Shown: piece by piece, positions 4,208-22,278 of the stretch
Position numbering within the stretch: position 1 is the stretch's first letter
Layout: each line of letters opens with the position of its first letter
Program-made: the position numbers and the translations under genes
Notes under the pieces: generated by a model
The model's input: only the letters and a program-made list of their open reading frames with translations
What the model was told of the DNA's origin: nothing
Databases searched by the model: none
Assembly (NCBI GenBank): GCA_036403675.1
Contig: DASWQM010000196.1
Span: 1-42,592, forward strand
Reading direction: 5' to 3'
DNA length: 42,592 nt
From: Solirubrobacteraceae bacterium
GTDB taxonomy: Bacteria > Actinomycetota > Thermoleophilia > Solirubrobacterales > Solirubrobacteraceae

Positions 4208-5635
4208 TCAGAGCGCCGCCGGTGCCGGTACGACGAGCAGCCGCGGCTCGGTCATCTCCTCCATCGCGAAGCTCACGCCCTCGCGGCCGGAGCCGGAGTC
4301 GCGGACACCGCCGTAGGGTTGCTGCACCGCGCGGAAGAACGGCGCCTCGTTGACGACGACCGCCCCCGCCTCGATCGAGGCGAAGGCGGCCATCGCAGCC
4401 CCGAGATCACGCGTGAAGATCGCCGCCTGCAGCCCGTAACGAGTGGCGTTCGCAAGCCGGATGCCCTCCGCGAGGTCGTCGTAGCGGTCGATGCAGGCGA
4501 CCGGCCCGAAGACCTCCTCCCGCCAGCAGCGCGCGCCGTGAGGGACGTTCTCGATCACCGTCGCCTCGTGGAAGCGCCCGTAGCCGTCGCCCCCGAGCAG
4601 GACGTCGGCGCCGCCGGCGCGCGCCTCCCCCACCCACTCCGCGACGCGCGCCACCTCCGCCGCGGAGATCATCGGCGGCATCTCGGTGCTCTCCTGGAGC
4701 GGGTCGCCGGGCCGCAGCCGCCGCGCCCGCGCCACGAACGCGTCGAGGAAGTCGTCGGCGACCGCCCGCGCGACGAGGATCCGCTGCGCCGAGATGCAGA
4801 CCTGACCCGCGTACGCGAACGCGCCGAACGTCAGCCGGTCGGCGGCGAGCTCCACGTCGGCGTCGGGCTCGACGAGGACGGCCGCGTTGCCGCCGAGCTC
4901 GAGCGTCACCTTCTTGCGCGCGTTGGCGGCCTTCAGTGGCCAGCCGACGGCGTCCGAGCCCGTGAACGTGATCCCGCGCACGCGCGGGTCGGCGGCGATC
5001 CGCGACGCCCGCTGCCCGCCGACCGCCAGCACGCCGATCGCGCCGTCGGGCCAGTCGTCCTCGGCGACCAGCGCGGCGAGCGCAAGCGCCGACAGCGGCG
5101 TCTGCGAGGCCGGCTTGACGAGCACCGGGTTGCCCGCCGCCAGCGCCGGCGCGACCTTGTGCGCCACGAGGTTCAACGGGAAGTTGAACGGCGTGATCGC
5201 CAGCACCGGCCCGATCGGGAAGCGCTGCAGCAGCCCGGCGCGGTTGCCGAGGCCCGGCTCGGTGTCGAACGGCAGCCAGCGTCCCTCCATCCGCTTGGCC
5301 TGCTCGCCCGCCCAGCGGAAGACGTACATCGCCCGGGTCGCCTCGCCGCGCGCCTCGCGGATCGGCTTGCCCGCCTCCAGCGAGATCGTCCGGGCGAGCT
5401 CCTCGACCCGCTCCCCGATCCGCGCGGACGCCGCCAGCAGACGCTCGGAGCGCTCCCACGCCGGCATCGCCGCGACCAGCGGGGCCGCGGCGGCGGCAGC
5501 GTCGAGCGCGGCGTCCACGGCCGCCTCGGAGGGAACGGCAGCCTCGCCGACGACCGAGCCGTCGTAGGGGCTGCGGACCTCGAGGCGCTCTCCGACCGCG
5601 CGCAGCGCGCCGGCGGTGTCCGGGCGGGCGGCCAC
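4208..5635 (-). CDS. NAD(P)-dependent aldehyde dehydrogenase
   Basis: I chose the GTG at 5635, 2 nt after the upstream stop, giving 475 aa. The catalytic motifs LELGGNA (Glu) and GQVCISAQR (Cys) are present. The 634-aa track ORF overlaps the upstream gene. Confidence 0.85.
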   Translation of the reverse strand: MAARPDTAGALRAVGERLEVRSPYDGSVVGEAAVPSEAAVDAALDAAAAAAPLVAAMPAWERSERLLAASARIGERVEELARTISLEAGKPIREARGEATRAMYVFRWAGEQAKRMEGRWLPFDTEPGLGNRAGLLQRFPIGPVLAITPFNFPLNLVAHKVAPALAAGNPVLVKPASQTPLSALALAALVAEDDWPDGAIGVLAVGGQRASRIAADPRVRGITFTGSDAVGWPLKAANARKKVTLELGGNAAVLVEPDADVELAADRLTFGAFAYAGQVCISAQRILVARAVADDFLDAFVARARRLRPGDPLQESTEMPPMISAAEVARVAEWVGEARAGGADVLLGGDGYGRFHEATVIENVPHGARCWREEVFGPVACIDRYDDLAEGIRLANATRYGLQAAIFTRDLGAAMAAFASIEAGAVVVNEAPFFRAVQQPYGGVRDSGSGREGVSFAMEEMTEPRLLVVPAPAAL

Positions 5636-5637
5636 GA

Positions 5638-6774
5638 CTACCCGGCCAGCGCGGCCCGCGGCGCCGTCCCCTCCTTGATCTCCTCGCGCACGATCGCCGC
5701 GCCGTCGACGAGCGCGCGCAGCTTGCTGGCGCCGATCATGCGCGGGAGGTTGATGAGGCCGCAGTCCGTCGAGAGCCCCAGGCGCTCGGCCGGCACGACC
5801 TCCAGGCAGCGGCGGATCCGCTCGGCGACGTCCTGCGCGGTCTCGGTGATCGTCGACTTCACGTCCACGACCCCGGCGACGAAGTCGCGGTCCCAGTTGT
5901 TGTCGACGAGCGGCTTGAGGTCGTCGACGCCCATGCGGGCGACCTCGTAGTTCAACGCGTCCATGTGCGCGTCGAGCGCCTGCGGGAAGATCGCCGCGGC
6001 GCGCTCGGGTGCGGCGGCGTCGGACGGGCGCTTGTCGAGCACCCAGGCGCCGAACTCCCGCTCTCCCTCGTCCGGGAAGTAGCCGGGCGTGCCGGAGTAG
6101 TTGCCCCAGCACGTGTGGACCCAGAACTGCACGCCCGGGACCTCGTCCACCGCGAGGTTGAAGGCCTCGACCTCCCAGTCGGACATGCCGTAGGGCCAGA
6201 CGAACTCGTCGAGCTGGATGATGTCGACGCCCTCGTCGGCGAGCTGCAGGAAGTCCTCGTGGAACGCCTTTGCGATCGCGCGGGCGAGGTCGCGGTTGGA
6301 GTTGTAGAACGTGTCGTTGGACGCGAGCGTCAGCACCTGGATGCCGTTGTAGGAGACCTTCACCGGCTTGCGCGTCGCCTTGCGCACGGCCCGCAGCGTG
6401 GCGACGTGGAACGGGTGCAGGCGGCGCACCTCGCCCGTGACCGTCGGCGCGAACAGCGTCGAGTAGATCGGCAGGCCGATCGGCGGACCGGACATCTGGT
6501 AGCCGGCCATCCGCTCGTAGTAGTGGTAGAGGATCTGGCCGTAGGGGCTGTCGCCGCCATACACCTTGCCATCGGAGATGACGTCGATCCCGGCGGCCTC
6601 CTGGTCATGGACGATCGCGGCGACGGCATCCTCGAACGCCTCGCGAGAGATCGAGTCGTAGACGAACTCCCCCTTCGGGAACTGGGCGAAGGCGTGGCCG
6701 TCGTACCAGCGTGGGTTGGGGTAGTTGCCGACCATTGTGGTGGGCAGCAGGATGTCCTGATTGCCGATGCGCAT
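5638..6774 (-). CDS. etnE: MetE-family zinc alkyltransferase, best read as epoxyalkane:coenzyme M transferase (EaCoMT, XecA/EtnE-like)
   Basis: 378 aa, the size of a single MetE C-terminal-type domain. It has a His-x-Cys...Cys zinc pattern (WVHTCWGN and STDCGL). It also has the blocks NYPNPRWYD (6700-6726) and VKSTITETA, which I recall as the conserved EaCoMT blocks. The CoM gene context supports the call. Confidence 0.75.
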   Translation of the reverse strand: MRIGNQDILLPTTMVGNYPNPRWYDGHAFAQFPKGEFVYDSISREAFEDAVAAIVHDQEAAGIDVISDGKVYGGDSPYGQILYHYYERMAGYQMSGPPIGLPIYSTLFAPTVTGEVRRLHPFHVATLRAVRKATRKPVKVSYNGIQVLTLASNDTFYNSNRDLARAIAKAFHEDFLQLADEGVDIIQLDEFVWPYGMSDWEVEAFNLAVDEVPGVQFWVHTCWGNYSGTPGYFPDEGEREFGAWVLDKRPSDAAAPERAAAIFPQALDAHMDALNYEVARMGVDDLKPLVDNNWDRDFVAGVVDVKSTITETAQDVAERIRRCLEVVPAERLGLSTDCGLINLPRMIGASKLRALVDGAAIVREEIKEGTAPRAALAG

Positions 6775-6847
6775 CGCGAAAAACTCCTCCTCGCCTTCGA
6801 ACGTGGCAGCTGCAGGGTGACGCTAGATCCGGGGGCGACGCGGTTCA

Positions 6848-8953
6848 CTATCCCCCGACGAGCATTCCGGCGGGCGCGGTTGGCGCTGGGGGAGCAGGCG
6901 CGCCGACGATCCGCACGTCGACGGCCACGCTGCCGCGCGGCCCGGCGAGCACCGGGTTGAGATCGAGCTCGGCGATCCCGTCAACGCCGGCGATGAGCCG
7001 CGACGCGGCGGCGACTGTGGCCGCCAGCGCGCCGAGGTCTGCCGGCGGCCCGCCACGGGCCCCGGTCAGCAGCCCGATGCCCCGCAGGGACTCGATCGCC
7101 TCCAGCGCCTGCGCCTCGCTGACGGGCGCCAGGCGGAAGGCGACGTCCTGCAGCAGCTCGACGAAGACGCCGCCGAAGCCGACCATGACGACGGGACCGA
7201 GCGCCGGGTCGCGCAGCGCGCCGACGACCATCTCGGTGCCGCTCACCATCGGCTGGACCAGCACATCGGCCTGCGGGTCGAGTGCCAGCAGCGCAGCGGC
7301 GGCGGCGCGCACGGCGGCGGCGTCGCCGAGCCCGAGCTGCACACCGCCGGCGTCGGACTTGTGCACGTGCGCGCCGCCGGCGAGCTTCACCGCGACCGGC
7401 AAGCCGATCCGCGCGGCCGCCGCGGCGGCGTCGTCGGCGTCCGAGCAGACCGCCTGCGGCGGCACGGCGATTCCGAACGCCGCGGCGAGGCGGGCGGCGT
7501 CGCCGGGCGCCAGCAGCCCCGCCCCGACGGCTGGCAGATCGTCCGAGACGGCGGCGGGCGCCGCCTGCCGCGCGCGCCCGCGCACCTGCCCGTGCCGCCA
7601 GGCGAGCGCAGCGGCGCGCGCGGTGCGCTGCGGCCAGTCGAATGTGGGCACGCGCGCGTCGTGCAGGAGGTCGGCGTTGGGGCGCGCCTGCGCCGGCGCG
7701 ACCCAGCAGACGTAGACCGGGATGTCGAAGCCGCCGGCGTGCAGCCGCGCCGTCGCATCGCGCACCGCCGCCGCGACGGCGGGGTCCATCGCCGACCGCT
7801 GGAGCAGGACCGGCACGACGACGTCGACCTCGCCCGAGCGCGCGAGGAGCTCGATGGCGAGCGGGTAGAGATCCGCGAAGCGCGCCCACGCGGTCGTCAC
7901 GTCGACGGGGTTGCGGGCGCTGCCGTATCCCGGCAGCACGTCGGCGAGCTCACGCCGGAGGTCCTGCGACAGCTCGGGGACCTCCAGGCCCTGCTCGCTG
8001 AGCAGGTCCGCGAGCTCGACGCCGGTGCCGCCCGAGTTCGTCACGATCCCGACGCGCGGCCCGCGCGGCACGGGCTGCCAGTCCAGCGCCCGCGCGGCGT
8101 CGATCATCTCCAGGCCGCTGTCGGCGACGACGACGCCCGCCTGCTCGAGCGCCGCCCGCCAGATCACGGCATCGCCGGCGAGCGCGGCGGTGTGCGACAG
8201 CGCCGCGCGCGCGCCCGCGCCGGTGCGGCCGGTCTTCGTCACGAGCACCGGCTTGCGCGCCGTGACCTCGATCGCGGCCTCGCAGAAGCCGCGTGCGCCC
8301 GCGACGGACTCGACGAAGAAGCACGCGACGCTCGTCTGCTCGTCGGCGCCGAGATGGGCGAGCAGCTCGGCGTCCGTGACGTCGGCCTTGTTGCCGGCGG
8401 CGTAGACCTTCGCAAAGCCCATCCGCTGCTCGATCCCGAGCATGTACACCGCCATGCCGTAGGCACCCGATTGCGTGACGAGCGAGATCCCGCCGGCGTG
8501 CTCGGCCGTGCCGGCGGCCATCGAGGCGTTCAGTCCGGTGGCGCAGTTCTGCACGCCGAGGCAGTTCGGCCCGACGATCCGCACGCCGCCGCGGCGCGCC
8601 GCCGCGACCACCTGCTCCTGCAGCTCGGCGCCCTCTGTCCCCGTCTCCGCGAAGCCGCCCGACAGCACGACGACCGCGCCCGCGCCCACGGCGACGGCAT
8701 CGTCGACGACCGCCGGCACCGCGGCGGCCGGGACGGCGGCGACGACGAGGTCGACGCCGCCCGGCACGTCGCGCAGCCGGGCGTATGCGCGCAGGCCGCC
8801 GACCACCTCGCGGCGCGTGCTGACCGGGACGACGTCACCGGCGAACGCCTCGAGGTTGCGCATGACCGTCGTGCCGAGCTTGCCCGGCTCGTCGGAGGCG
8901 CCGACGACCGCGACGCGGGCGGGATCGAAGACCGCTCGCAGCCCGTGACTCAT
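6848..8953 (-). CDS. ADP-forming acyl-CoA synthetase (fused CoA-binding / succinyl-CoA-synthetase-like / ATP-grasp)
   Basis: The ATG at 8953 overlaps the upstream stop (ATGA). 701 aa, with the N-terminus VAVVGASDEPGKLG...IVGPNCLG and a C-terminal ATP-grasp region. The 835-aa track ORF is an over-extension. Confidence 0.85.
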   Translation of the reverse strand: MSHGLRAVFDPARVAVVGASDEPGKLGTTVMRNLEAFAGDVVPVSTRREVVGGLRAYARLRDVPGGVDLVVAAVPAAAVPAVVDDAVAVGAGAVVVLSGGFAETGTEGAELQEQVVAAARRGGVRIVGPNCLGVQNCATGLNASMAAGTAEHAGGISLVTQSGAYGMAVYMLGIEQRMGFAKVYAAGNKADVTDAELLAHLGADEQTSVACFFVESVAGARGFCEAAIEVTARKPVLVTKTGRTGAGARAALSHTAALAGDAVIWRAALEQAGVVVADSGLEMIDAARALDWQPVPRGPRVGIVTNSGGTGVELADLLSEQGLEVPELSQDLRRELADVLPGYGSARNPVDVTTAWARFADLYPLAIELLARSGEVDVVVPVLLQRSAMDPAVAAAVRDATARLHAGGFDIPVYVCWVAPAQARPNADLLHDARVPTFDWPQRTARAAALAWRHGQVRGRARQAAPAAVSDDLPAVGAGLLAPGDAARLAAAFGIAVPPQAVCSDADDAAAAAARIGLPVAVKLAGGAHVHKSDAGGVQLGLGDAAAVRAAAAALLALDPQADVLVQPMVSGTEMVVGALRDPALGPVVMVGFGGVFVELLQDVAFRLAPVSEAQALEAIESLRGIGLLTGARGGPPADLGALAATVAAASRLIAGVDGIAELDLNPVLAGPRGSVAVDVRIVGAPAPPAPTAPAGMLVGG

Positions 8954-9795
8954 GCGCAGCACGGACAGGAGGCGTGGTGGGCCGACCGGCTGAAGCGGCG
9001 CTCCAGCTCGCGCGGGTGGAACTCCGCGCGCCGCACGCCCAGGCGGTCGACCGAGCGCACGACCGCGAGCTCCTCGGCGCGGGGCGGTGCGACGGCCCGC
9101 AGGTCGCGGGCGACGTCGAGCTCGAAGCCGGTGGCGGCCAGCACGTGGTCGAGCTGGACGTCGGGGAACAGCTCGCGCAGCCGCAGGCGCCCGTCGGGGA
9201 AGTCGAAGACGCCGAGCTCGGTCACCATCGCGCCCGGGCCGCCGCCCGCCAGGCCGAGCTCCTTGCGCGTGCCCAGCGACGTCCGGTGGCCGAGATCGGT
9301 GATGAAGTCGCAGTCCGCGACGAGGGCCCGGCCGGAACGGTGGCGGGTCGTCCACAGCGTCAGCTCGCGGACGGTCGCCGAGAGGTTGCAGCCGCCGCCG
9401 CCGCCGCCGAGCTTGACCCGCGGCCGCGGCAGCCCCCCGACGGCGGTGACGTTCGTGTTGCCGTGGGGGTCGATCTGCGCGCCCGACAGGAACATCCGGT
9501 CAAGCTGGCCGCGCGCGGCCAGGTCGAAGAGCTCCTCGAAGCGCAGGATGTGGTCGGCGCCGCGCAGCAGCGCCCAGTCGTTGGACGTCGCCGGGATGAA
9601 CGCCGGCTCGGGGTCGAGCGCGTACGTCGATCCCTCGACGAGGACCATGTGCGGCGCGTGCGTGCGCTTGGCGACGTACATCGCCACCTGGGCGCACGGG
9701 CTGCCGAAGCCGTGGAAGACGATCTCGCCGTCGCGGATCGTGCGTGCGAGCGCGATGCAGAACCACTCGTCGATCGTGAACTCGACCGGCGTCAT
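8950..9795 (-). CDS. Family I CoA-transferase, subunit B (glutaconate/3-oxoadipate CoA-transferase beta-like)
   Basis: ATG at 9795, 281 aa: MTPVEFTIDEWFCIALARTI...MFLSGAQIDPHGNTNVT...GGGGGGCNL, which is typical of beta subunits. Confidence 0.8.
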   Translation of the reverse strand: MTPVEFTIDEWFCIALARTIRDGEIVFHGFGSPCAQVAMYVAKRTHAPHMVLVEGSTYALDPEPAFIPATSNDWALLRGADHILRFEELFDLAARGQLDRMFLSGAQIDPHGNTNVTAVGGLPRPRVKLGGGGGGCNLSATVRELTLWTTRHRSGRALVADCDFITDLGHRTSLGTRKELGLAGGGPGAMVTELGVFDFPDGRLRLRELFPDVQLDHVLAATGFELDVARDLRAVAPPRAEELAVVRSVDRLGVRRAEFHPRELERRFSRSAHHASCPCCA

Positions 9796-9850
9796 CGCGA
9801 GGACCGACCTCGCGAGTCGACGGGAGCGACGGTCGGGCGATGGCGCGCTG

Positions 9851-10774
9851 TCATGCCGACGCGAGCTCCATCCAGCGCTCGGTGGAGTCCTTCCACTCGC
9901 ACAGCCCCCGCAGGCGCTCGTCGCCGACGGCATCCAGGTACGCCGCCTCGCCGTCGCCGGTCACGTAGCGCGCGAGGTAGTCGCTGACGCCGTCGTCGCT
10001 GCCGGCGGCATCGACCCATTCGCGCAGATGCGCCCGGTCGTAGGCGTACTGCGGATAGCACGAGGTCGGGTGGGCGCCGAGCGGCGCCTCGACGACGGCG
10101 TCGACGAGGAACGACGGCAGCACGATGCCGGCCTCGGCGACCTCGTCGGCGGGCGCCAGCCGCTCGACGGTGACGATGAGCTGGCGGCTCGCGTGCGCGA
10201 AGCGCTCGTCGAGCACGAACGGGCGGCGCAGGTGGACGTTGCCGCGCCGGTCGGCGCTGAGGCCGTGGATGAGCGCGACGTCCGGCGCCAGGGCCGGCAC
10301 GGCGACGAGCCGCTGGCCCGTGAAGGGGCATGTGATCTCGCCGTACTCGGGGTGCAGCGCGAGGATCCCGGTGCCCGCGACGCCGCGCACCGGCATGAAC
10401 GGCAACCCGTACTCGGCCGCGCGCAGCTGCTGCAGCAGCGTGTAGCAGCAGGTCTCCCGGACCGCGATCAAGCCCAGCTCGGCGGCGCGGCGGTACGCGG
10501 GCGCCAGCCCGAGATCCTGCTCGAAGCCGACATAGCTCTGCTCGACCGCAGCCACCGCGCCGGCCCCGACGAGCAGGTCGACGTCGATCCCGTGGGCCGA
10601 GCCCACGAGGCGCAGGTCGCGGCGTTCCTGCCGGACGAGCTCCCGTACGAGCGCCATCGGCTCGCGGTAGGAGAGCGCGCCCCCGAGCGCGACGGTGTCG
10701 CCGTCGCGCACGAGCGCGATCGCATCGGCCAGGGTGCGCCGCTTGTCGGGCAGCATCCGCGCGCGCATCATCAC
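9851..10774 (-). CDS. Family I CoA-transferase, subunit A
   Basis: 307 aa, with ...LADAIALVRDGDTVALGG... and the rest of the alpha-subunit layout. Candidate starts GTG 10774, ATG 10771 and ATG 10768 overlap the upstream TGA (10771-10773). Confidence 0.8.
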   Translation of the reverse strand: MMMRARMLPDKRRTLADAIALVRDGDTVALGGALSYREPMALVRELVRQERRDLRLVGSAHGIDVDLLVGAGAVAAVEQSYVGFEQDLGLAPAYRRAAELGLIAVRETCCYTLLQQLRAAEYGLPFMPVRGVAGTGILALHPEYGEITCPFTGQRLVAVPALAPDVALIHGLSADRRGNVHLRRPFVLDERFAHASRQLIVTVERLAPADEVAEAGIVLPSFLVDAVVEAPLGAHPTSCYPQYAYDRAHLREWVDAAGSDDGVSDYLARYVTGDGEAAYLDAVGDERLRGLCEWKDSTERWMELASA

Positions 10775-11541
10775 TGCGCCGTCATGCCGCCGTCGGCGGC
10801 GTGGATCGAGCCGGTCAGGAAGGCGGCGTCGTCGCTGACGAGAAAGAGGGCGACGCGGGCGATCTCCTCAGGCGCCCCGAGTCGCCCGATCGGGTACTTC
10901 TCGACCGTCATCGCGATCCCGCGGTCGAGGTCGCCGTTGCCGCGCTCGGTGATCATCGTCTCCATCAGCGGTGTGAGCACCGTTCCCGGGCAGACGCAGT
11001 TGACGCGGATGCCGCGCGGTGCGAGGTCGAGCGCCATCGCGCGCGTCAGCGACACGACCGCGCCCTTGGCGGCGCAGTAGGCCGCGAAGCGGCGGATGCC
11101 GACCAGCGCCGCGACGGAGCCCTGGTTGACGATCGCGCCGCCGCCGTTGCGCTCCATCTCGGCGACGGCGTACTTCGAGCACAGCCACGTGCCCTTGACG
11201 TTGACGTCGAAGCAGCGGTCCCAGTCCTCCGCGCTGACGTCGACGACGTCCCCCGTGGCGTCCACGCCCGCGTTGTTGTAGAGCACGTCGAGCCGTCCCC
11301 AGGCGTCGACGGGCGCGCCGACGATCGCCCGCGCGCCGTCGTCGGAGCCGACGTCGCCGACGACGGCAAGCGCCTCGCCGCCGGACTGCGCGATCTCGTC
11401 GGCGACCTGCTCGGCGGCCTCCGCGCGCACGTCGGCGACGGCCACGCGGGCGCCCTCGGCCGCAAACAGCCGCGCCGCCGCGGCACCGATCCCCGAGCCG
11501 GCCCCGGTCACGATCGCCACTCTTCCGTCGAGGCGCCCCAC
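10771..11541 (-). CDS. Short-chain dehydrogenase/reductase (SDR)
   Basis: TGAGSGIG cofactor motif, NNAG, and catalytic YCAAK. I prefer the GTG at 11541 (VGRLDGRVAIVTGAG), which lies 10 nt after the upstream stop. The ATG at 11631 would overlap the upstream gene by 80 nt. Confidence 0.8.
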   Translation of the reverse strand: MGRLDGRVAIVTGAGSGIGAAAARLFAAEGARVAVADVRAEAAEQVADEIAQSGGEALAVVGDVGSDDGARAIVGAPVDAWGRLDVLYNNAGVDATGDVVDVSAEDWDRCFDVNVKGTWLCSKYAVAEMERNGGGAIVNQGSVAALVGIRRFAAYCAAKGAVVSLTRAMALDLAPRGIRVNCVCPGTVLTPLMETMITERGNGDLDRGIAMTVEKYPIGRLGAPEEIARVALFLVSDDAAFLTGSIHAADGGMTAQ

Positions 11542-11551
11542 GGCTCGGACG

Positions 11552-13123: not shown

Positions 13124-14466
13124 GGCACGCCGCCCTCCGAGAGCACGCGGTCGACGAGCGCGATCGCCGGGCTCGCCGCCGTGACCGGGTCCAGCAGCCG
13201 GTCGAGCTCCTCCGCCGTCAGCGCGGCGGCGATCGCCGGCTCGGCCGTCAGCGCCTCGCGCAGCGTGCGGCCTTCGGCCTGGCCGCGCATCGAGGCGGCG
13301 TAGACGAGCTCGTGCGCGGTGTGCTTCCCGAGGCGGTCGGTCAGCGCGCGCATGACCGGCTCGGACTGCACCCAGCCACCCTGCGCGGCGACGTTGGCCG
13401 CCATCCGCTCGGCGTCGACCTCCAGGCCCTCGACGAGGTCGATCCCGAAGTGCAGCGCGGCGGCGGTCGCCACGCAGGCCTCGGGCAGGTAGGCCCACTC
13501 GGCCTTCCAAGCGGCGCCGTCGCGCTCGTGCTCGTGGACGACCCCCTCCAGCGCGAGCCCCGCGGCGCCGCGGACGACGCGCCAGAGCGTGCCGAGATGC
13601 TCGGACAGCTCGGGGTTGCGCTTGTGCGGCATCGTGATCGAGCCGACGAGCCCGCTGCGCGTGGCCTCGGCGAGCTCGCCGATCTCCGGTCGCTGCAGCT
13701 GGTAGACCTCGCGCCCGATCTTCGCCAGCGTCCCCGTGACGAGCGCCAGCAGGGTGAGGAACTCCGCGACCCGGTCGCGCGCCGTCAGCCACGTGACGTC
13801 GGGCGCCGCCAGCCCGAGGCGCTCGCACATCCTCCCCTGCAGCTCGAGCCCCGCGTCGCCCCAGAACGAGCACGTGCCGACGGCGCCCGCGAGCTGGCCG
13901 ACGGCCAGCCGCGGGCGGGCCTGGGCGACGCGCTCGCGATGGCGGCGCACCTCGGCGACCCAGACCGCAGCCTTGAAGCCGAACGTCACCGGCAGCCCCG
14001 GCTGCCCGTGCGTGCGGCCCAGCACGACGGTCGTGCGGTGCTCGCGCGCGAGCACCAGCAGCGCCCGCTCCAGGCGCTGCAGGTCGGTGGCCGTGTCGTC
14101 CAGGACGTCGCGCATGACGATGCCGGTCCAGCTGTCGGTGACATCCTGAACCGTCGCGCCCCAGTAGACCCACTCGCGGGCCGCGGGCGACAGGCGCGCC
14201 TGCCACGCGCGGATGAGCCCGAGCGTCGAGTGGCCGCTCGCGCGCGTGCCGGCGGCGACCTCCGCGAGGTCGAAGCCGTCCACGTCGGCGGTCGCCACGA
14301 TCTCCTCCGCGGCCGCCCGCGGCACGAGGCCGAGGTCGGCCTGCGCGGCGGCGAGCGCCGCCAGGACGTCGAGCCAGGCCTGCAGGCGGCCGCGCTCGCC
14401 GAAGCGCTCGCGCGCCGCGGGCGTGCTCCACAGGTGCTCGTAGACCACCGAGTCGATGATGTGCAT
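13120..14466 (-). CDS. Aspartase/fumarase-superfamily lyase, adenylosuccinate-lyase / carboxymuconate-cycloisomerase-like (candidate XcbC/XcbD-type)
   Basis: ATG at 14466 (MHIIDSVVYEHLW), 448 aa, with the signature GSITMPHKRNP. Confidence 0.8.
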   Translation of the reverse strand: MHIIDSVVYEHLWSTPAARERFGERGRLQAWLDVLAALAAAQADLGLVPRAAAEEIVATADVDGFDLAEVAAGTRASGHSTLGLIRAWQARLSPAAREWVYWGATVQDVTDSWTGIVMRDVLDDTATDLQRLERALLVLAREHRTTVVLGRTHGQPGLPVTFGFKAAVWVAEVRRHRERVAQARPRLAVGQLAGAVGTCSFWGDAGLELQGRMCERLGLAAPDVTWLTARDRVAEFLTLLALVTGTLAKIGREVYQLQRPEIGELAEATRSGLVGSITMPHKRNPELSEHLGTLWRVVRGAAGLALEGVVHEHERDGAAWKAEWAYLPEACVATAAALHFGIDLVEGLEVDAERMAANVAAQGGWVQSEPVMRALTDRLGKHTAHELVYAASMRGQAEGRTLREALTAEPAIAAALTAEELDRLLDPVTAASPAIALVDRVLSEGGVP

Positions 14467-14471
14467 GGCGC

Positions 14472-15365
14472 TCACGACGTCGGCACCGGCGTCCAGGCCG
14501 GGACGAGGAGGTGCAGCGCCTCGCGGACCTCCTCGAGCGTCGCGCCCCACGGCACGACCACGAGCGCGCCGTCGGACTCGATGCCGCGCTCGCGCAGGCA
14601 GCACTTCACGAGCGTCGGCTCCGTGCGCTCGTCCGCGCGCACGCGCGGGCACAGCTCCACCCGGGCCGCGGGCTCGGCGCCGTACAGCTCGCTGTGGATC
14701 TGGCGCGAGCGCTCGCAGCCGAGCAGCGTCCAGCCACCGTCCGGTGGCTCGGCCGGGCCGGAATCAAGGAAGTCGACCGGGCCGGCGAGCTCGAGCCCGC
14801 CGCAGCGGCAGGGCAGCAGCCAGTGCTCGGTCGCGACCTCCGCCGCGATCTCGTTGAGGTCGATCGCCTCCAGCTCGAGCGCGACCGGGTCGAGGTCCTC
14901 GTCGTACTCGAGCACGCGCCGGGCCATGTCGAGCAGCTTCGGCGGCGCGGGCGGGACGACCTCGACGACACGGATCCGGACCGGCGCCGGCTCGACGATG
15001 AGGTTGACGTGCTGGTTGCGCCCCTCGACGACGTAGACGCGCGCCGCCTGACCGCTGGCCGCTGCCGCGCGTGCCATCTGCGTGGCGTTGCCCGTGTCGA
15101 TCTGCGGGTCGCGCACGAACGCGGTCTCCTCGGGCCCCGAGACCCAGTGGATCTCGCTGACGGGCCAGAACAGGGCGTCGCCGGCGGGCTCCTTGTCGAC
15201 CGTCACGACCGCATGGCCCTCGTCGCCCTCGGCGATCAGCACCTCCGTGCGCCGGTATACGCGCCGGTTGACGAGGTGCTCGCGAACGGCGTCCTCGGTC
15301 AGCGCCACGCCGAGGCGCTGCACGCTCACGCCGCGGTACGGCCGGCAGATCCAGTTCGGGCGCAT
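14472..15365 (-). CDS. Hypothetical protein with a Cys-rich C-terminal half; no family recognised
   Basis: 297 aa from the ATG at 15365, which shares its A with the upstream TGA. Third-position GC is high. The gene is embedded in the operon, with a 5-nt gap to the next start. Cys motifs are LLPCRCGG, LLGCERS, ELCPR and VKCCL. Confidence 0.65.
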   Translation of the reverse strand: MRPNWICRPYRGVSVQRLGVALTEDAVREHLVNRRVYRRTEVLIAEGDEGHAVVTVDKEPAGDALFWPVSEIHWVSGPEETAFVRDPQIDTGNATQMARAAAASGQAARVYVVEGRNQHVNLIVEPAPVRIRVVEVVPPAPPKLLDMARRVLEYDEDLDPVALELEAIDLNEIAAEVATEHWLLPCRCGGLELAGPVDFLDSGPAEPPDGGWTLLGCERSRQIHSELYGAEPAARVELCPRVRADERTEPTLVKCCLRERGIESDGALVVVPWGATLEEVREALHLLVPAWTPVPTS

Positions 15366-16090
15366 CACACCGCCGTCCAGGCGCCGTCGATGACGAGCAT
15401 CGCGCCGTTCATGTACGCCAGCCGGTCCCCGGCGAGCAGCGCGACGGCATCGGCGATCTCCTCGGCGACCGCGACGCGCCCGGCCGGGATCCGGGTGAGC
15501 ACGTCGGCGCGCAGCTGCGGGTCCTCGAGGCGCCAGCGCGTCATCGGCGTGTCGACGATCCCCGGGCAGATCGCGTTGGCGCGGATGCCTCGTGCGGCGT
15601 AGTCGGCCGCCAGCGAGCGCGTGAGCTGCACGACGCCGCCCTTGGACGCGGAGTAGGCGCAGCGGCCGGGGAAGGCGACGAGGCCTGCGGCGGATGCGAC
15701 GTTGACGATCGAGCCGCCGCCACGCGCGAGCATTCCCGGCAGCGCCGCGCGGCAGACGAGAAACGGGCCGGTGAGGTTGACCTCGAGGACGCGGCGCCAC
15801 TCGTCGACCGGCGTCACGTCGCACTCGGCGGCCGCCGGCGACCCCGTGATGCCGGCGACGTTGACGACGGCGTCGAGCGGGCCGAGCTCCGCCTCGGCCC
15901 GGCCGACCGCGCGCTCGACGGCGTCGGCGTCGGTGACGTCCGCCGTGAGCGCGAGCGCGTCGAGATCGCGCAGGCGCGCGCCGTCGAGGTCGAGCGCGGC
16001 CACTGCCGTGCCGCCGGCCAGCAGGCGCTCGACGCAGGCGCGCCCGATGCCCGACGCGGCTCCGGTGACGAACGCGACCGCCGGCGTCAC
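15365..16090 (-). CDS. SDR with the 2-(R)-hydroxypropyl-CoM dehydrogenase-like residue pattern
   Basis: 241 aa, GTG start at 16090. TGAASGIG cofactor motif. Ser lies at Tyr-13 and the catalytic motif is YSASK. Arg lies at Tyr-3 (GRCAY) and at Tyr+41 (TPMTRWR), the same spacing I recall for S142/R152/Y155/K159/R196 of Xanthobacter R-HPCDH. Confidence 0.75.
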   Translation of the reverse strand: MTPAVAFVTGAASGIGRACVERLLAGGTAVAALDLDGARLRDLDALALTADVTDADAVERAVGRAEAELGPLDAVVNVAGITGSPAAAECDVTPVDEWRRVLEVNLTGPFLVCRAALPGMLARGGGSIVNVASAAGLVAFPGRCAYSASKGGVVQLTRSLAADYAARGIRANAICPGIVDTPMTRWRLEDPQLRADVLTRIPAGRVAVAEEIADAVALLAGDRLAYMNGAMLVIDGAWTAV

Positions 16091-16093
16091 GCC

Positions 16094-17866
16094 CTACGTC
16101 TCCTGGAGCTCGAGCGTGCGCAGGATGCTGATCGCCAGCTGCGCCTCGAAGCGATCGCGCTGGCGTGCGAAGTCGAGCTTCGCGAGGCCCTGGACCTTGT
16201 CGAGCCGGTAGCGCACCGTCTTCGGATGCACGAACATCGCCGCCGCCGTGCGCTGGAGGTTGCAGTCGTTGGCGAGGAACGCCTCGATCGTGTGCGTCAG
16301 GTCGCTGGGATGGTCGCGGTCGTAGTCGAGCACCCCGCCGAGGACGCGGCGCGCGAACTCGCGCAGGTCGCCACGGTCGCCGGGGGCGAGCAGGAAGCGC
16401 ATGACGCCGAGCTCGTCGAGCACGGCGACGTGATGGCAGCCCACATCCGTCGGCGCCGCGTTGAGGGCGACCTGCGCCTGGGCGAGCGCCTCGGGCAGGT
16501 CGGCGATGTCGGCGGCGCACGCGCTCACCCCGGCCGCCACGTCGATCTCCGGGAAGCGCTCGCCGAGCCGGTCGACGACGGCCTCGACGCTGGCGCGCGG
16601 ATCGTCGGTGGCGGGCAGCAGCAGCGCGATGAGCGAGCCCCGCGCCGCCGCCAGCGCGGCCTCGCCGCCCTGCGCCGTCGCGGCCCGCTCGGCGACCTGG
16701 GCGAGCGACTCGCGCAGCGCCAGCTGCGGCAGCGCGCCATCGCTCGACGCGTGGCGCGGGCGCGCCTGCGCGCGGATGAGCGCCACCCGCACCTTCTCCG
16801 GCAGCTCGAGGCGCAGCGCGCGCGCCCAGACGAGCGCCTCGGCGACGTCGGCGATCTTGCCGTCGAGCAGGTCCCAGAGGAAGTCCCCGCGGACCCTCGT
16901 GCGAGCCTGTAGCACCGCGCGCTCGCGCGTGAGCTCCAGCGCGCACATGATCGTCGCCTGCTCGACGAGCACGACGTCGAGCGGCACGGGCGGGTGGCGC
17001 AGCGCGACGCCGAGGTAGCCGAGCCGCTCGCCCCCGGCGAAGACGTCGCGGACGAGCAGGCGGTCGTCGGCGACGGGCCGGGGCGCCGCGATGCGCGCCG
17101 CCATCCGCGACTGGAGCGCCAGCCCCGCGGCACCGCTGGCGGCCATCACGCGGCAGCCGGTGTCGAGCGTCGCGACGTCGGCATCCAGCAGCCGCGCGAC
17201 GCCGTCGACGAGATCGGTGAGCGCGACGTCCTCCAGCACGAGCCGCATGAGCTCGTCGTGGACCTCGGTGGCGCGCTGCAGGACCTCGTTCTGCGTCTCG
17301 AGCCGCTGGTTGACGATCTGCAGGCCGTCGACGGTGCGGCGCTGCGCCTCGTAGAGCCGCGCGTTCTCGACGGCGATCGCGGCGAGGTTGGCGAGCGTCG
17401 TCATCGCCTGCACGTCGGCGGCGACGTAGGCGTCGGGCTGTCGCCGCCAGCTCATCGCCACGCCGATCGCGCGGCCGCGCACGGCCATCGGCGCGCCGAG
17501 CGCCGCCCGCGTGCCGTCGGCCTGCGCGATGTCCGCGAAGTCGCGCGAGATCCGCTGGTCGGACTGGTAGTCGTCGACGCGCACCGGGCGCCCCTCCTCG
17601 AAGACCTTGCCGGCGACGCCCTGCCCGCGGCCGACGACGAGGCGCGCCGTCCCGACGGTGCGATGTCCCGTGCAGGCCTGCATCCGCAGCGTCTCGCCGG
17701 TCTCGTCGGCGAGCAGGATGCCGGCGATGTCGGCGTTCGTCGTCGCGACGACGGCGTTGAGGACCGACAGCAGCGTGGTGTCGAGCTCGAGCGAGCTGAG
17801 GATGTCGGCGGCGACGCGCCCGAAGGCGCCGAGGCGTCCGGCCTCCAGGGTTGCGACGGGACCCAT
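16094..17866 (-). CDS. GAF-domain / PucR-family transcriptional regulator
   Basis: 590 aa. The N-terminal region is GAF-like (LLSVLNAVVATTNADIAGILLADETGETLRMQA...GVAGKV). The C-terminal PucR helix-turn-helix (HTH) is NLQRTAAAMFVHPKTVRYRLDKV. The stop lies 3 nt before the next gene's start. Confidence 0.85.
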   Translation of the reverse strand: MGPVATLEAGRLGAFGRVAADILSSLELDTTLLSVLNAVVATTNADIAGILLADETGETLRMQACTGHRTVGTARLVVGRGQGVAGKVFEEGRPVRVDDYQSDQRISRDFADIAQADGTRAALGAPMAVRGRAIGVAMSWRRQPDAYVAADVQAMTTLANLAAIAVENARLYEAQRRTVDGLQIVNQRLETQNEVLQRATEVHDELMRLVLEDVALTDLVDGVARLLDADVATLDTGCRVMAASGAAGLALQSRMAARIAAPRPVADDRLLVRDVFAGGERLGYLGVALRHPPVPLDVVLVEQATIMCALELTRERAVLQARTRVRGDFLWDLLDGKIADVAEALVWARALRLELPEKVRVALIRAQARPRHASSDGALPQLALRESLAQVAERAATAQGGEAALAAARGSLIALLLPATDDPRASVEAVVDRLGERFPEIDVAAGVSACAADIADLPEALAQAQVALNAAPTDVGCHHVAVLDELGVMRFLLAPGDRGDLREFARRVLGGVLDYDRDHPSDLTHTIEAFLANDCNLQRTAAAMFVHPKTVRYRLDKVQGLAKLDFARQRDRFEAQLAISILRTLELQET

Positions 17867-17921
17867 GTGCGGACTCTAGTCCCCTTGGGTTGCTCTCCGA
17901 AAGACAATCGAGCAGCGGGGC

Positions 17922-17939
17922 TTTGTCCGCGCGAGCAAA
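17922..17939. promoter_or_regulatory. Imperfect 18-nt palindrome TTTGTCCGCGCGAGCAAA in the divergent intergenic region
   Basis: 14 of 18 positions are self-complementary (TTTG..CGCGCG..CAAA). It sits in the lower-GC 130-nt gap between the PucR regulator gene and the 2-KPCC gene. Confidence 0.25.
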
Positions 17940-17996
17940 CGAGACGACCCTGTATCGCACGTACGCTGGCGACACCACAGCCACGAGGAGGACGAC

Positions 17997-19547
17997 ATTC
18001 CCGAGCTTGACGTCGTCGGCTGGCGGTCCGCCATCGAGGATGCGCTGGGCCGTCCCGGCGCAGCCCCGATCCTCAACCTCGACGACGACGGCCGGGGGCC
18101 GTACGACGCGATCTTCGTCGGCGGCGGCGCCGCCGGGCGCTTCGGCGGCTCCTACCTGCGGGCGATGGGCGGGCGCGCGCTGATCGTCGACCGGTGGCCG
18201 TTCCTCGGCGGCAGCTGCCCGCATCAGGCGTGCGTGCCCCACCACCTCTTCTCCGAGGCGGCGGCTCTGCTCGACCGCGCGCGGTGGTTCTCCGGCGAGC
18301 TCTTCTTCCCCCCGTTCGACCCGGCGCGCGCGAGCATCCTGCAGCTCGTCGAGCTGTTCCGCGCCGGCCGCTCGACCGCGCACGCCTTCATGAACTGGCA
18401 GACCCAGGTCCAGCTCGAGGTCGAGTTCGTCCTCAACGCGGAGGCCGAGATCCTCGACGCCAACCGCGTGTCGGCGGCCGGCCGGACCTTCGAGGCCCGC
18501 AACCTCGTCATCGGGCTCGGCGCCTTCCAGAAGCCGCTGGAGATCCCGGGCGCCGACCTGCCCGGCGTGCACGACTGGGCGACGCTCGTCGAGGACCTCG
18601 ACTACGAGCCGACGCGCTGCGTGATCATCGGCGGCGGCAAGACGGCCGTCGAGTACGGCTCGTTCTTCCAATCGACCGGCTGCGCGACGACGATCGTCTC
18701 GCGCGCGCCGGTCATGCGGACGCGCAGCCTGCACCACGTCGACGAGGACATCCGCCGCTATGTCGTCGACGGCATGCGCGCCCGCGGCATGACGCTGCTC
18801 GAAGGCGCCCGCGTGATCGCGCTCGAGGGCGACGGCGTGGTCGAGCGTGCGCTCGTCAGCCATCCCGACGGCCGGGTGGAGGCGATCGAGTGCGACTTCG
18901 TCTTCAACTGCACCGGCGAGCGCGCCAACAGCGAGGCGGCCGTGCGCGCGCTCGGGCTGGCGACCGGTCCGGGCGGAGAGATCCTCGTCGACGACCGGAT
19001 GCGCACGAGCGTCGACGGCGTCTACGCCGCAGGCGACGTCATCGGATCGCCGATGGAGATGTTCAAGGCGCGCAAGTGCGGCATGACGGCGGCACGCAAC
19101 GTCATGGGCGAGGACTACACGTTCGACTTCAGCGAGTACCCCGACTTCCTCCACACGACCTACGAGGTCAGCTGGGTCGGGCTGAGCGAGGAGGAGGCGC
19201 GCGAGCGCCACGACGACATCGCGGTGATCCGCATGCCGCCCAAGGGGCAGGAGCGCGACAACCCGCTGCCCTGCGCCGAGGGGACGATGCTCTACGCCTT
19301 TGCCAAGCCGGAGCTCTCCGGCCTGCAGAAGTGCATCGTCGACTCCGGATCTCGGCGTATCATCGGTTTCCACCATGTCGGCTACGGGGCCAAGGACGCC
19401 TTCCAGTACCTCGACGCCCTCCTGCGCCGTCCCCAGGGGCTGACGATCGATGAGCTCGGGGAGATGAACGAGCTGTTCCTCAACCCGGAGCACTTCATCC
19501 AGCTCTCGCGCCTGCGGGCCGGACGGCGAGAGCTGGTGGATCTTTGA
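17997..19547 (+). CDS. xecC: 2-oxopropyl-CoM reductase (carboxylating), 2-KPCC-like flavoprotein disulfide oxidoreductase
   Basis: Motifs: YDAIFVGGGAAGRFGGSYLRAMGGRALIVDRWPFLGGSCPHQACVPHHLF, GGGKTAVEYG, PMEMFKARK, YPDFLHTTYEVSWVG, HHVGYGAKDAFQYL and the C-terminal ELFLNPEHFIQLSRLRAG. These closely follow my recollection of Xanthobacter 2-KPCC. The 5' end is uncertain. Homology extends upstream of the first ATG (18165), and there is no in-frame ATG, GTG or TTG after the stop at 17877. I propose the ATT at 17997, which follows GAGGAGGA. Confidence 0.85.
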   Translation: MPELDVVGWRSAIEDALGRPGAAPILNLDDDGRGPYDAIFVGGGAAGRFGGSYLRAMGGRALIVDRWPFLGGSCPHQACVPHHLFSEAAALLDRARWFSGELFFPPFDPARASILQLVELFRAGRSTAHAFMNWQTQVQLEVEFVLNAEAEILDANRVSAAGRTFEARNLVIGLGAFQKPLEIPGADLPGVHDWATLVEDLDYEPTRCVIIGGGKTAVEYGSFFQSTGCATTIVSRAPVMRTRSLHHVDEDIRRYVVDGMRARGMTLLEGARVIALEGDGVVERALVSHPDGRVEAIECDFVFNCTGERANSEAAVRALGLATGPGGEILVDDRMRTSVDGVYAAGDVIGSPMEMFKARKCGMTAARNVMGEDYTFDFSEYPDFLHTTYEVSWVGLSEEEARERHDDIAVIRMPPKGQERDNPLPCAEGTMLYAFAKPELSGLQKCIVDSGSRRIIGFHHVGYGAKDAFQYLDALLRRPQGLTIDELGEMNELFLNPEHFIQLSRLRAGRRELVDL

Positions 19548-20386
19548 GCTCCGACCACGCGCTCACCGGCGGGCAGATCGCCCGCTTCGCCATCAAGCGG
19601 CCCGGCGGCGCCACGCCGGGCTTCCTCGAGCTGCCCGACCGCACGGTCAAGCCGCGCGCCGCCGGCGTCACGCACGTGCTCGACAAGGGGCTGACGCTCG
19701 TGGAGCTCGACGGGCTGCTCGGCTCGGCCGGACCGCACATCGACTTCGTCAAGCTCGGCTGGGGCACGGCCTACGTCTCGGCCGACGTCTCGGCGAAGGT
19801 CGCCCACTGCGATCGCGCGAACGTCGGCGCGTGCCTCGGCGGCACGCTGCTGGAACTGGCCTGGGCGCAGGGGCGCATGGCGCAGTACGTGCACTGGGCG
19901 CACGGCATCGGCGTCTCCTGCGTCGAGGTCTCGAACGGCTCGGTCGGCATGTCCCCCGCCGAGAAGCGCCGGCTGATCCAGGAGCTCGCGGAGGAGTTCG
20001 AGGTCCTCGCCGAGGTCGGCTCCAAGCGGCCGGGACCGGTCGACGTGCGCAGCTGGTGCGACGAGCTGGCGCGCGACCTCGACGCCGGCGCGAGCTGGCT
20101 CGTCACCGAGGGACGCGAGAGCGGCACGGTCGGGCTGTTCGAGCCCAACGGAGACGTGCGCGTGGAGCTCGTGGACGCGATCGCCGCAGCCGTGCCGGTC
20201 GACCGGGTGATCTTCGAGGCGCCGCTGAAGGCGCAGCAGGCGGTCCTCATCCACCTCGTCGGCCCGAACGTCGGGCTCGGCAACATCGCTCCCGGGGAGG
20301 CGCTGTCGGTGGAGACGCTGCGGCGTGGCCTGCGAACCGACACGATCGACCTCGCGCTTCCCGAGCTCGACCGGCTGCCCGTCTAG
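19544..20386 (+). CDS. comA: (2R)-phospho-3-sulfolactate synthase (ComA / XcbB-like)
   Basis: 280 aa. The motifs HIDFVKLGWGTAYV, GGTLLE, VEVSNGS, EVGSK, DLDAGASWLVTEGRESG, IFEAPLKAQQ and VETLRRGLRTDT align with archaeal ComA. The TTG start overlaps the upstream TGA (TTGA). Confidence 0.9.
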   Translation: MSSDHALTGGQIARFAIKRPGGATPGFLELPDRTVKPRAAGVTHVLDKGLTLVELDGLLGSAGPHIDFVKLGWGTAYVSADVSAKVAHCDRANVGACLGGTLLELAWAQGRMAQYVHWAHGIGVSCVEVSNGSVGMSPAEKRRLIQELAEEFEVLAEVGSKRPGPVDVRSWCDELARDLDAGASWLVTEGRESGTVGLFEPNGDVRVELVDAIAAAVPVDRVIFEAPLKAQQAVLIHLVGPNVGLGNIAPGEALSVETLRRGLRTDTIDLALPELDRLPV

Positions 20387-22150: not shown

Positions 22151-22278
22151 CGGACCTCCTTCGGGTTTGGGCTTTGTTCCCCCGCACACCAGAGGCGGGG
22201 GCCCACCGAAGGCCCCTCATGATTTCGACGACCCGCCGGATGGAGCTACGCCAGCGATGCCGCCAGCGCCGTGACCGC
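22103..22278 (-). repeat. Copy 2 of the duplicated leader/signal module
   Basis: See copy 1. Its upstream end is the genuine 3' end of the TauE-family gene (stop at 22246-22248). Confidence 0.8.

Follow-up and report, generated by a model that had tools for sequence, protein, structure and literature searches.

How is a gene set for the coenzyme M (CoM)-dependent conversion of epoxides to be understood when no enzyme that would form the epoxide is encoded beside it? The question is raised by a contig of 42,592 nucleotides from a Solirubrobacteraceae bacterium (DASWQM010000196.1, assembly GCA_036403675.1; its whole length is called the window here), in which 13 tightly packed genes at 4208-20386 form two divergent operons encoding homologs of the epoxyalkane:CoM transferase EtnE (EaCoMT), of 2-hydroxyalkyl-CoM dehydrogenases, of 2-ketopropyl-CoM oxidoreductase/carboxylase (2-KPCC) and of enzymes of bacterial CoM biosynthesis. 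We read this locus as a functional, vertically inherited chromosomal module that would consume C2-C3 epoxides via CoM and is not linked to alkene oxidation, a reading to which we give a probability of roughly 0.7.

Genes were called by GC content at third codon positions (GC3); raw lists of open reading frames (ORFs) are full of spurious frames because the window has a GC content of 73%. These calls bear out the two divergent operons of 13 genes described in an earlier note on this DNA: eleven genes lie on the minus strand (4208-17866), spaced by -13 to +73 nt and with five junctions overlapping by 4 to 13 nt, and two lie on the plus strand (17997-20386). All 13 are intact ORFs with a coding-type GC3. 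Searches of Pfam, NCBIfam and PDB recovered each domain that the note had named, in its place, and identities, model scores and active-site residues put the proteins inside the EaCoMT, 2-KPCC, R-2-hydroxypropyl-CoM dehydrogenase (R-HPCDH) and Xcb families, as had been proposed. Some entries changed. Three CoM-biosynthesis homologs had been counted, and ComA/XcbB and the two lyases stand, but there are four Xcb genes, the fourth being XcbA (DUF7714) at 14472-15368, previously taken for an unknown ORF. The CoA-transferase, right as to family, is encoded by two genes, and the extent of the 2-KPCC gene holds while its start is refined to a probable ATT codon. The features are given below in the transcription order of the minus-strand operon, followed by the intergenic region and the plus-strand operon; functions are predicted, and identities refer to the plasmid-borne clusters of Mycolicibacterium chubuense NBB4 and Nocardioides JS614.

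16094-17866, minus strand: regulator with GAF, GGDEF-like and PucR-type helix-turn-helix domains, the architecture of EtnR1; first gene of the long operon (Pfam GAF, GGDEF_2, HTH_30)
15365-16090, minus strand: R-HPCDH-type 2-hydroxyalkyl-CoM dehydrogenase, a short-chain dehydrogenase/reductase (SDR; best PDB match the R-HPCDH 2CFC, 233 bits versus 160 for the next)
14472-15368, minus strand: XcbA, [2Fe-2S] reductase for the last CoM step (Pfam DUF7714, 275 bits; NCBIfam XcbA, 351 bits, cut-off 150)
13120-14466, minus strand: XcbD, 3-sulfopropionylcysteine synthase (NCBIfam CoM_syn_XcbD, 656 bits, cut-off 600; 51% to NBB4)
11552-13123, minus strand: XcbC-like lyase of the aspartase/fumarase superfamily, for phosphate elimination from phosphosulfolactate (best match NCBIfam CoM_syn_XcbC)
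10771-11541, minus strand: etn-cluster-type SDR, candidate 2-hydroxyalkyl-CoM dehydrogenase (62% to the SDR preceding the CoA-transferases in NBB4 and JS614)
9851-10774, minus strand: CoA-transferase subunit A (Pfam CoA_trans, 95 bits; 64% to NBB4 CoAT1)
8950-9795, minus strand: CoA-transferase subunit B (Pfam CoA_trans; 62% to NBB4 CoAT2 from residue 1)
6848-8962, minus strand: ADP-forming acyl-CoA synthetase (ACS), fused alpha/beta, ATP-grasp (Pfam CoA_binding_2, Succ_CoA_lig, Ligase_CoA_2, ATP-grasp_5; 42% to the ACS of the NBB4 cluster)
5638-6774, minus strand: epoxyalkane:CoM transferase EtnE/EaCoMT (identity to characterized enzymes, zinc-ligand alignment)
4208-5635, minus strand: NAD(P)-dependent aldehyde dehydrogenase, last gene of the operon (Pfam Aldedh, 463 bits)
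17867-17996, between the strands: divergent intergenic control region of 130 bp, with a palindrome and the Shine-Dalgarno sequence GAGGAGGA
17997-19547, plus strand: 2-KPCC homolog, probably with an AUU start (full-length match of 571 bits to 1MO9 versus 122 for the next structure)
19544-20386, plus strand: phosphosulfolactate synthase ComA/XcbB (Pfam ComA, 252 bits; 53% to NBB4)

The start of CoA-transferase subunit B was set at ATG 9795 because the alignment with NBB4 CoAT2 begins at residue 1.

That the encoded enzymes act on an epoxide is suggested by EtnE, which is 76% identical to the enzyme of JS614, 75% to the EaCoMT of Rhodococcus B-276, 73% to that of NBB4 and 50% to Xanthobacter XecA; beyond the EaCoMTs, matches fall sharply to 31% or less and are methionine synthases. 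The protein carries the Pfam domain Meth_synt_2, and its residues H220, C222 and C338, invariant in a 12-sequence family alignment, align with His618, Cys620 and Cys704 of T. maritima MetE, which we take to be zinc ligands. These features assign EtnE to the zinc thiol-alkyltransferases of the EaCoMT family. The SDR at 15365-16090, 56% identical to the NBB4 SDR adjoining the 2-KPCC homolog of that plasmid, keeps S142, R152, Y155, K159, W195 and R196 in the alignment to 2CFC. Ser142, Tyr155 and Lys159 presumably form the catalytic triad and Arg152 and Arg196 presumably bind the sulfonate, roles that reportedly go back to work by Clark in 2004 and Krishnakumar in 2006; with both of these arginines kept, the protein is assigned to the R-HPCDH type. 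For the SDR at 10771-11541, the structure 4GH5 (which we take to be an S-2-hydroxypropyl-CoM dehydrogenase, S-HPCDH, with a numbering offset that we likewise assume) is only the third-best PDB match; K214 and Y215 are kept, and because R211 is replaced by Thr the alignment does not identify a clear S-HPCDH.

The 2-KPCC homolog keeps R56, C82/C87, H137, R365 and F501/H506 when aligned to the Xanthobacter enzyme (1MO9), where we take Arg56 to serve the CoM sulfonate and His137 to have a role as well. Its motifs read GSCPHQAC and ELFLNPEHF, compared with GSCPHNAC and ELFLNPTHF in 1MO9, and both are present in every 2-KPCC ortholog of the related loci described below. The Phe501/His506 dyad replaces the His-Glu pair of disulfide oxidoreductases (DSORs) and specifies carboxylation, and the Arg365 pocket has also been described (PMC8358701); by the residues kept, the protein is classed as a 2-KPCC of the carboxylating type.

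For the cofactor itself, family assignments indicate that four of the five bacterial CoM genes are present, namely XcbA, XcbB/ComA, XcbD and a probable XcbC. The XcbC-like lyase scores 471 bits, below the cut-off of 575 (next model argH, 266 bits), and is syntenic with its NBB4 and JS614 homologs at 46-51% identity (NBB4 46%). ComA/XcbB scores 230 bits with the archaeal model arch_ComA of NCBIfam, below its cut-off of 280, and its TTG start codon overlaps the stop codon of the 2-KPCC gene. In the characterized pathway the enzymes act in the order XcbB, XcbC, XcbD, XcbE, XcbA; XcbE depends on pyridoxal phosphate (PLP) and is needed in vitro, and XcbA is the [2Fe-2S] reductase of the final step (PMC9457059).

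The putative regulator is 31% identical to NBB4 EtnR1 over 291 aa, and no MEDS partner (EtnR2) was found in the window. EtnR1/EtnR2 of NBB4 respond to the epoxide itself, and in co-culture epoxide from one strain is sensed by another (PMC11197473), so that a use of epoxide from outside the cell is plausible. The intergenic region that separates the two operons contains an imperfect palindrome, TTTGTCCGCGCGAGCAAA (17922-17939), as a candidate operator. Consensus scans detected neither a sigma-70 promoter nor an intrinsic terminator, a result that is little informative in an actinobacterium of 73% GC.

Could the substrate be something other than an epoxide? Ketone carboxylation, the breakdown of CoM thioethers from the environment or of other organosulfonates, and CoM conjugation of other electrophiles such as halo-alcohols or halo-aldehydes would all be conceivable for a locus with no epoxide-forming enzyme in cis. 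The aldehyde dehydrogenase points the same way, being closest to enzymes for sulfo-, phosphono- and hydroxy-aldehydes (its nearest NCBIfam models, all below their cut-offs, are those for lactaldehyde, sulfoacetaldehyde SafD, phosphonoacetaldehyde and succinate-semialdehyde dehydrogenases, thus for small or anionic aldehydes), as does a TauE/SafE-family membrane protein encoded 1.9 kb away. EtnE, however, shares 72-76% identity with proteins whose epoxyalkane:CoM transferase activity has been demonstrated, the R-HPCDH and 2-KPCC homologs have lost none of the active-site residues for hydroxyalkyl- and oxoalkyl-CoM, and the regulator resembles the epoxide-responsive EtnR1, while the TauE gene lies in the glycolytic operon and is only ~30% identical to the TauE-family genes near EtnE in other loci (L047, L050, L052, L057). 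A non-epoxide substrate is in our view improbable.

The genomic setting of the locus was assessed from its flanks and from related genomes. UvrC of the window is 80-92% identical to matches which, among those named, are all proteins of Solirubrobacteraceae metagenome-assembled genomes (MAGs), and on this marker the host is placed in the Solirubrobacteraceae. The left flank encodes the FtsH C-terminus, an ECF sigma factor, a glyoxalase, an esterase, RraB and a secreted 336-aa protein; the right flank encodes three small secreted proteins, followed by TauE-iPGM-tpi-pgk-gap, rapZ and uvrC. Core genes are therefore found on both sides of the cluster. No transposase or integrase turned up in the scanned ORFs of the window, and GC content is even across cluster and flanks. 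The three closest genomes, two Microflora Danica MAGs (L014, L015) and Solirubrobacteraceae BP_483 (L016), carry the operon at ~83% nucleotide identity, and the esterase and glyoxalase neighbors are common to the window, L014 and L015, the cluster standing at a matching chromosomal position in sister species. The MAGs nearest to the window are MFD04212.bin.2.181 (CAVYAX01), MFD04935.bin.2.5 (CAWIXC01) and BP_483 (JAXDFS01). Because operon and neighbors are shared in this way, the locus is judged to be chromosomal, as the earlier note had supposed, and vertically inherited within the lineage. Carriage on a plasmid or mobile element, a trait of the etn clusters, is not seen here, and a horizontally transferred island was rejected on account of the uniform GC content and the synteny with the sister species.

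The closest model, to judge from gene order and identity, is the actinobacterial ethene/vinyl-chloride (etn) cluster, with the Xanthobacter epoxide carboxylase more distant. The Xanthobacter/Rhodococcus system invoked at the outset is thus apt as regards its components, but the NBB4 and JS614 clusters are closer and share gene order. On plasmid pMYCCH.02 of NBB4 one strand carries xcbC-xcbE-xcbD-xcbA-comA and the divergent strand DSOR-SDR-(regulators)-CoAT-CoAT-ACS-etnE-etnABCD, with a 2-KPCC homolog and an SDR 12 kb away; the layout of pNOCA01 in JS614, a strain treated as an ethene/vinyl-chloride degrader in the cited literature, resembles it. The window has the same core order (SDR, CoA-transferase A, B, ADP-forming ACS, EtnE) and shares with both plasmids XcbA, XcbD, an XcbC-like lyase, ComA, a 2-KPCC homolog adjoining an R-HPCDH-like SDR, and a GAF/PucR-type activator. 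Every gene except that of the aldehyde dehydrogenase has a homolog there, at 42-73% identity (regulator 31%). Lacking from the window are etnABCD, xcbE, the MEDS sensor EtnR2 and a second, CoADR-like DSOR without the CxxxxC motif; peculiar to it are the classical aldehyde dehydrogenase after etnE, the divergent two-gene operon of 2-KPCC and ComA, and the core-chromosome setting. The aldehyde dehydrogenase, which is not homologous to the JS614 aldehyde dehydrogenase, occupies the position where etnABCD follows etnE in NBB4, and among related loci an aldehyde dehydrogenase after EtnE is confined to the clade of the window and the L009/L011 clade.

With Xanthobacter autotrophicus Py2 the window shares all four catalytic types, the defining residues of XecA/EtnE, R-HPCDH and 2-KPCC, and XcbA, XcbB and XcbD together with an XcbC-like lyase. 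It differs in the 50% identity of EtnE to XecA, in having no clear S-HPCDH, in the added CoA-transferase, ACS and aldehyde dehydrogenase, and in lacking xcbE, an alkene monooxygenase and a megaplasmid context.

A precedent for the missing monooxygenase comes from methanotrophs. In Methylohalobius crimeensis an EtnE/CoM-biosynthesis cluster of 13 genes includes no alkene monooxygenase (Toppings et al. 2024, PMC11507031), similar clusters occur in ~10% of methanotroph genomes, and the cluster is induced by ethylene exposure, which its authors read as detoxification of epoxyethane made by particulate methane monooxygenase (pMMO); apart from this, studies of such genes had been confined to alkene-utilizing heterotrophs, and among bacteria only alkene utilizers were known to carry genes for CoM biosynthesis (PMC11507031). 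Both the methanotroph cluster and the window combine EtnE, SDR, CoA-transferase, ACS, DSOR, CoM biosynthesis and a regulator with no dedicated alkene monooxygenase. Methanotrophs, however, have in pMMO an obvious epoxide source, and their cluster lies on a genomic island, encodes a Xanthobacter-type EtnE (77% to XecA) and includes a PLP enzyme, whereas the window comes from a heterotrophic-type actinobacterium with no visible oxygenase, vertical inheritance, an actinobacterial EtnE (50% to XecA) and no PLP enzyme. Since the monooxygenase-less concept has been published for methanotrophs, the locus is not categorically new; it is a variant of the known CoM-dependent epoxide pathway. Beyond the methanotroph paper, the literature searched holds nothing on etnE or CoM in Solirubrobacterales or other monooxygenase-less Actinomycetota, and the view that CoM metabolism is uncharacterized in this lineage stands for the Solirubrobacteraceae in that literature.

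The absence of a monooxygenase in cis extends throughout the 42.6-kb window. Searches by tblastn with NBB4 EtnA, EtnB, EtnC and EtnD gave no match in the window at E<=1e-3; relaxed to E<=10, EtnA and EtnC gave short noise only (best E 0.046, 51 aa). The scanned ORFs of the window showed neither a soluble di-iron monooxygenase (SDIMO) nor another oxygenase domain, and no oxygenase was found in the extra 6.5 kb of flank available in L014 and L015. Relics of etnABCD or xcbE, sought also in the weakly coding stretch at 20.4-22.2 kb, were rejected because they yielded noise matches only.

This arrangement is common among relatives. An EtnE relative is encoded in 389 species-representative genomes, and the 49 best loci at species level, each flanked by 8 kb or more on either side, were surveyed for an SDIMO within 10 kb. 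None was found in 42 of these 49 loci; the seven that have one are scattered over the EtnE tree, with none in the clade of the window or its neighboring clades. In view of these counts and the methanotroph precedent, the arrangement is less exceptional than the earlier note suggests. A conserved substitute oxygenase was also considered and rejected, as clustering of all coding-type ORFs from 80 related loci gave no convincing epoxidase. The extra families recurring near EtnE in these 80 loci comprise an aldehyde dehydrogenase of the acylating type, an LLM oxidoreductase dependent on F420 (nine loci; absent from the window locus), 2-oxoacid dehydrogenase E1 subunits accompanied by a second MetE-like gene, and TauE. 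In a collection of 5.8 billion proteins, 641 EtnE-like clusters were obtained at E<=1e-40, the top 120 all at least 70% identical to EtnE of the window, compared with only ~115 protein clusters at least 50% identical to EtnC. A review counts 22 group-4 alkene monooxygenase sequences known in 2025 (PMC11825192). EtnE/CoM loci in sequenced Actinomycetota are thus mostly unlinked to an alkene monooxygenase, a pattern that has been little discussed.

Cultured strains whose EtnE/CoM loci have no SDIMO within 10 kb (L024, L036, L064, L065, L058, L039, L025) comprise Kribbella alba JCM 14306, Nocardioides pocheonensis Gsoil 818, Amycolatopsis nalaikhensis 2-2 (chromosome), A. echigonensis, A. alkalitolerans, Haloechinothrix salitolerans and Mycobacterium sp. 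SM1.

By analogy with the characterized Xanthobacter pathway and the proposed etn pathway (PMC9457059; PMC8727900), the module would work as follows. EtnE would open the epoxide with CoM to give 2-hydroxyalkyl-CoM, which the SDRs would oxidize to 2-oxoalkyl-CoM; the 2-KPCC homolog would then cleave the thioether with NADPH and add CO2, releasing CoM along with acetoacetate from a C3 epoxide or malonate semialdehyde from a C2 epoxide. The acids formed would be passed to central metabolism as CoA thioesters through the aldehyde dehydrogenase and the pair of CoA-transferase and ADP-forming synthetase. CoM would be made from phosphoenolpyruvate and sulfite via XcbB, XcbC, XcbD and XcbA, with the PLP-dependent XcbE step provided in trans, and the EtnR1-like GAF-PucR regulator would turn the operon on, probably in response to epoxide. 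The epoxide would come from outside the locus: it would be formed within the cell by an oxygenase that is unlinked or non-dedicated, or be released by neighboring microbes that co-oxidize alkenes.

Several points weigh against this reading. Even in the model ethene degraders the steps past hydroxyalkyl-CoM are hypothetical (PMC11507031; PMC8727900). Expression of the 2-KPCC would depend on a predicted AUU start, as no ATG, GTG or TTG lies between the in-frame stop at 17877-17879 and ATG 18165. The FAD-binding motif and Arg56 lie within the 56 codons that precede 18165, and the GC3 of 17997-18164 is 0.91; ATT 17997 aligns exactly with the ATG or GTG starts of 2-KPCC orthologs and is preceded, five bases upstream and at suitable spacing, by the Shine-Dalgarno sequence GAGGAGGA (17985-17992). 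The gene thus probably starts at this rare AUU codon, a sequencing error being the alternative. No independent contig covering ATT 17997 was found, the 460-aa product is not on record, and the sole ComA-bearing contig ends inside the 2-KPCC gene. CoM synthesis, furthermore, is not demonstrably complete, because xcbE is absent from the window although the in-vitro pathway needs XcbE (PMC9457059). The XcbE homolog envisaged in the earlier note was not found by tblastn with NBB4 and JS614 XcbE over the whole 42.6 kb, which gave noise only at E<=10, and there is no room for the gene between xcbD and xcbC, since the xcbD stop overlaps the xcbC start (13120-13123). The sister genome L014 does have a 1.1-kb xcbE in that position (L014 2549-3625), while the gene is missing at the locus in L015 (3462-3608), L016 and the related contig L008. 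A last point of this kind concerns the dN/dS values, which are 0.14-0.42 for ten cluster genes compared with the three sister species (lowest for EtnE, 0.14-0.16) but are qualitative only, because dS is probably compressed at 95% GC3. The ten compared genes are under purifying selection and, given these values, maintained by it; since this includes the remaining xcb genes, the PLP-dependent XcbE step is most likely supplied in trans.

The absence of xcbE from the window, L015, L016 and L008 but not from L014, together with a 2-KPCC gene that has no canonical start codon, would also suit a decaying, non-working etn remnant that has lost etnABCD and xcbE. Decay is hard to square with the purifying selection just described, with 13 of 13 genes being intact ORFs of coding-type GC3 and with intact catalytic residues; the arrangement is moreover kept across species at ~17% nucleotide divergence, and the Shine-Dalgarno sequence before ATT 17997 is strong and rightly spaced. 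We regard a non-working remnant as highly improbable.

The contig L008 (ENA ERZ25039588 contig_32436) encodes an EtnE 94% identical to that of the window over the aligned 74% of the query. The gene calls break up or fuse many genes of its cluster, which looks like a frameshift-rich assembly and not like real decay, and a PALP-family gene, 35% identical to XcbE, lies 7.5 kb downstream of EtnE.

The remaining points against a module unlinked to alkene oxidation concern what lies beyond the cluster. On the ftsH side, beyond the aldehyde dehydrogenase, only 4.2 kb is visible, and on pNOCA01 of JS614 ~23 kb separate etnC (131 kb) from the equivalent CoM/CoA-transferase cluster (155-177 kb, its etnE copy split in two), whose nearest gene is the 2-KPCC homolog. 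In view of this distance it is quite possible that a monooxygenase is encoded elsewhere in this genome. The window could then be the downstream half of an etn-type pathway for growth on ethene or propene, its dedicated monooxygenase being encoded at another site; the seven scattered loci in which an SDIMO adjoins EtnE would fit such classical alkene assimilation. In the sister species, however, no SDIMO is found within ~9 kb beyond the aldehyde dehydrogenase, none occurs in cis in the EtnE clade of the window or the clades next to it, and in the collection of 5.8 billion proteins, clusters of the group-4 SDIMO alpha subunit are about fivefold rarer than those of EtnE. The EtnC relatives that bear a name include none from Solirubrobacteraceae, which is weak evidence as most matches are nameless. 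Classical alkene assimilation appears rather unlikely on this balance. The monooxygenase-independent use of CoM put forward in the earlier note is accordingly sound in that no monooxygenase is encoded in cis, but as a wider claim it exceeds the evidence, given the ~23 kb separating etnC from the cluster in JS614 and the 4 kb visible on one side.

If the locus works as the epoxide-consuming module proposed here, the whole set of genes for epoxide carboxylation is a fixed part of the core chromosome in a soil family that is abundant and uncultured, and the monooxygenase-less layout dominates among the 49 checkable related species-level loci. Bacterial CoM has been treated as a rarity of a few plasmid-bearing alkene degraders and, since 2024, of some methanotrophs. 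A broader view, which we offer as a tentative possibility, is that Solirubrobacteraceae and many other soil Actinomycetota with monooxygenase-less EtnE/CoM clusters form a guild of scavengers subsisting in part on epoxyethane or epoxypropane leaked by methanotrophs, nitrifiers and alkane oxidizers that co-oxidize soil ethylene and propylene. In the lineage of the window, its members would make CoM with the four-gene Xcb set and a non-orthologous PLP enzyme, CoM would be a widespread soil cofactor, and etnE would be an unreliable marker of alkene and vinyl-chloride oxidizers. Soil ethylene and epoxide cycling may then include organisms that consume epoxide without making it. Counts of etnE serve as a field marker for aerobic vinyl-chloride and ethene degraders, and they may in that case largely report organisms unable to oxidize alkenes. 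The presence or absence of xcbE between sister species is a natural experiment on the replacement of the PLP step of CoM synthesis, and cultured strains with monooxygenase-less loci (K. alba, N. pocheonensis, A. nalaikhensis) make the idea directly testable.

Further genes recur around EtnE. The CoADR-like DSOR, which has the C-terminal sequence DLSYAPPYAPVYEP, was found near EtnE in 32 of the 49 loci, often adjoining ComA, and in most of L020-L093; absent from the window, it is inserted between CoA-transferase B and ACS in L016 (6057-7439) and L008 (6292-7741). It could be a CoM-disulfide reductase. The second MetE-like gene (~359 aa, 29-33% identical to EtnE) recurs near EtnE clusters in L009 (1119-2198) and L011-L013 (about 1-350), and also in L020, L027, L037, L044, L045, L051, L066, L069-L071, L075, L078, L081 and L092. 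In L009 it is part of a 2-oxoacid dehydrogenase operon, with E1-beta on one side and E2 on the other, and genes for E1 subunits occur near EtnE in six to nine loci.

Among the neighboring genes of the window, that of the TauE/SafE-family (sulfite exporter-like) membrane protein (22246-22974), 1.9 kb from ComA, overlaps the stop codon of iPGM and so ends the gap-pgk-tpi-iPGM operon; it was considered as a part of the CoM system and set aside, since it is a member of the glycolytic operon and no ortholog of the TauE genes near other EtnE loci. The three small secreted or lipoprotein-like ORFs (20490-20984, 21082-21684 and 21719-22189) have a weak coding signal and no Pfam match, and the first and third look paralogous, both having the N-terminus MF(D/N)R..VRRS.KAAAL. 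Finally, a large regulator with winged-helix, BTAD, adenylate/guanylate cyclase and AAA/NACHT-type ATPase domains, unrelated to the CoM cluster, is encoded at 38040-40550.

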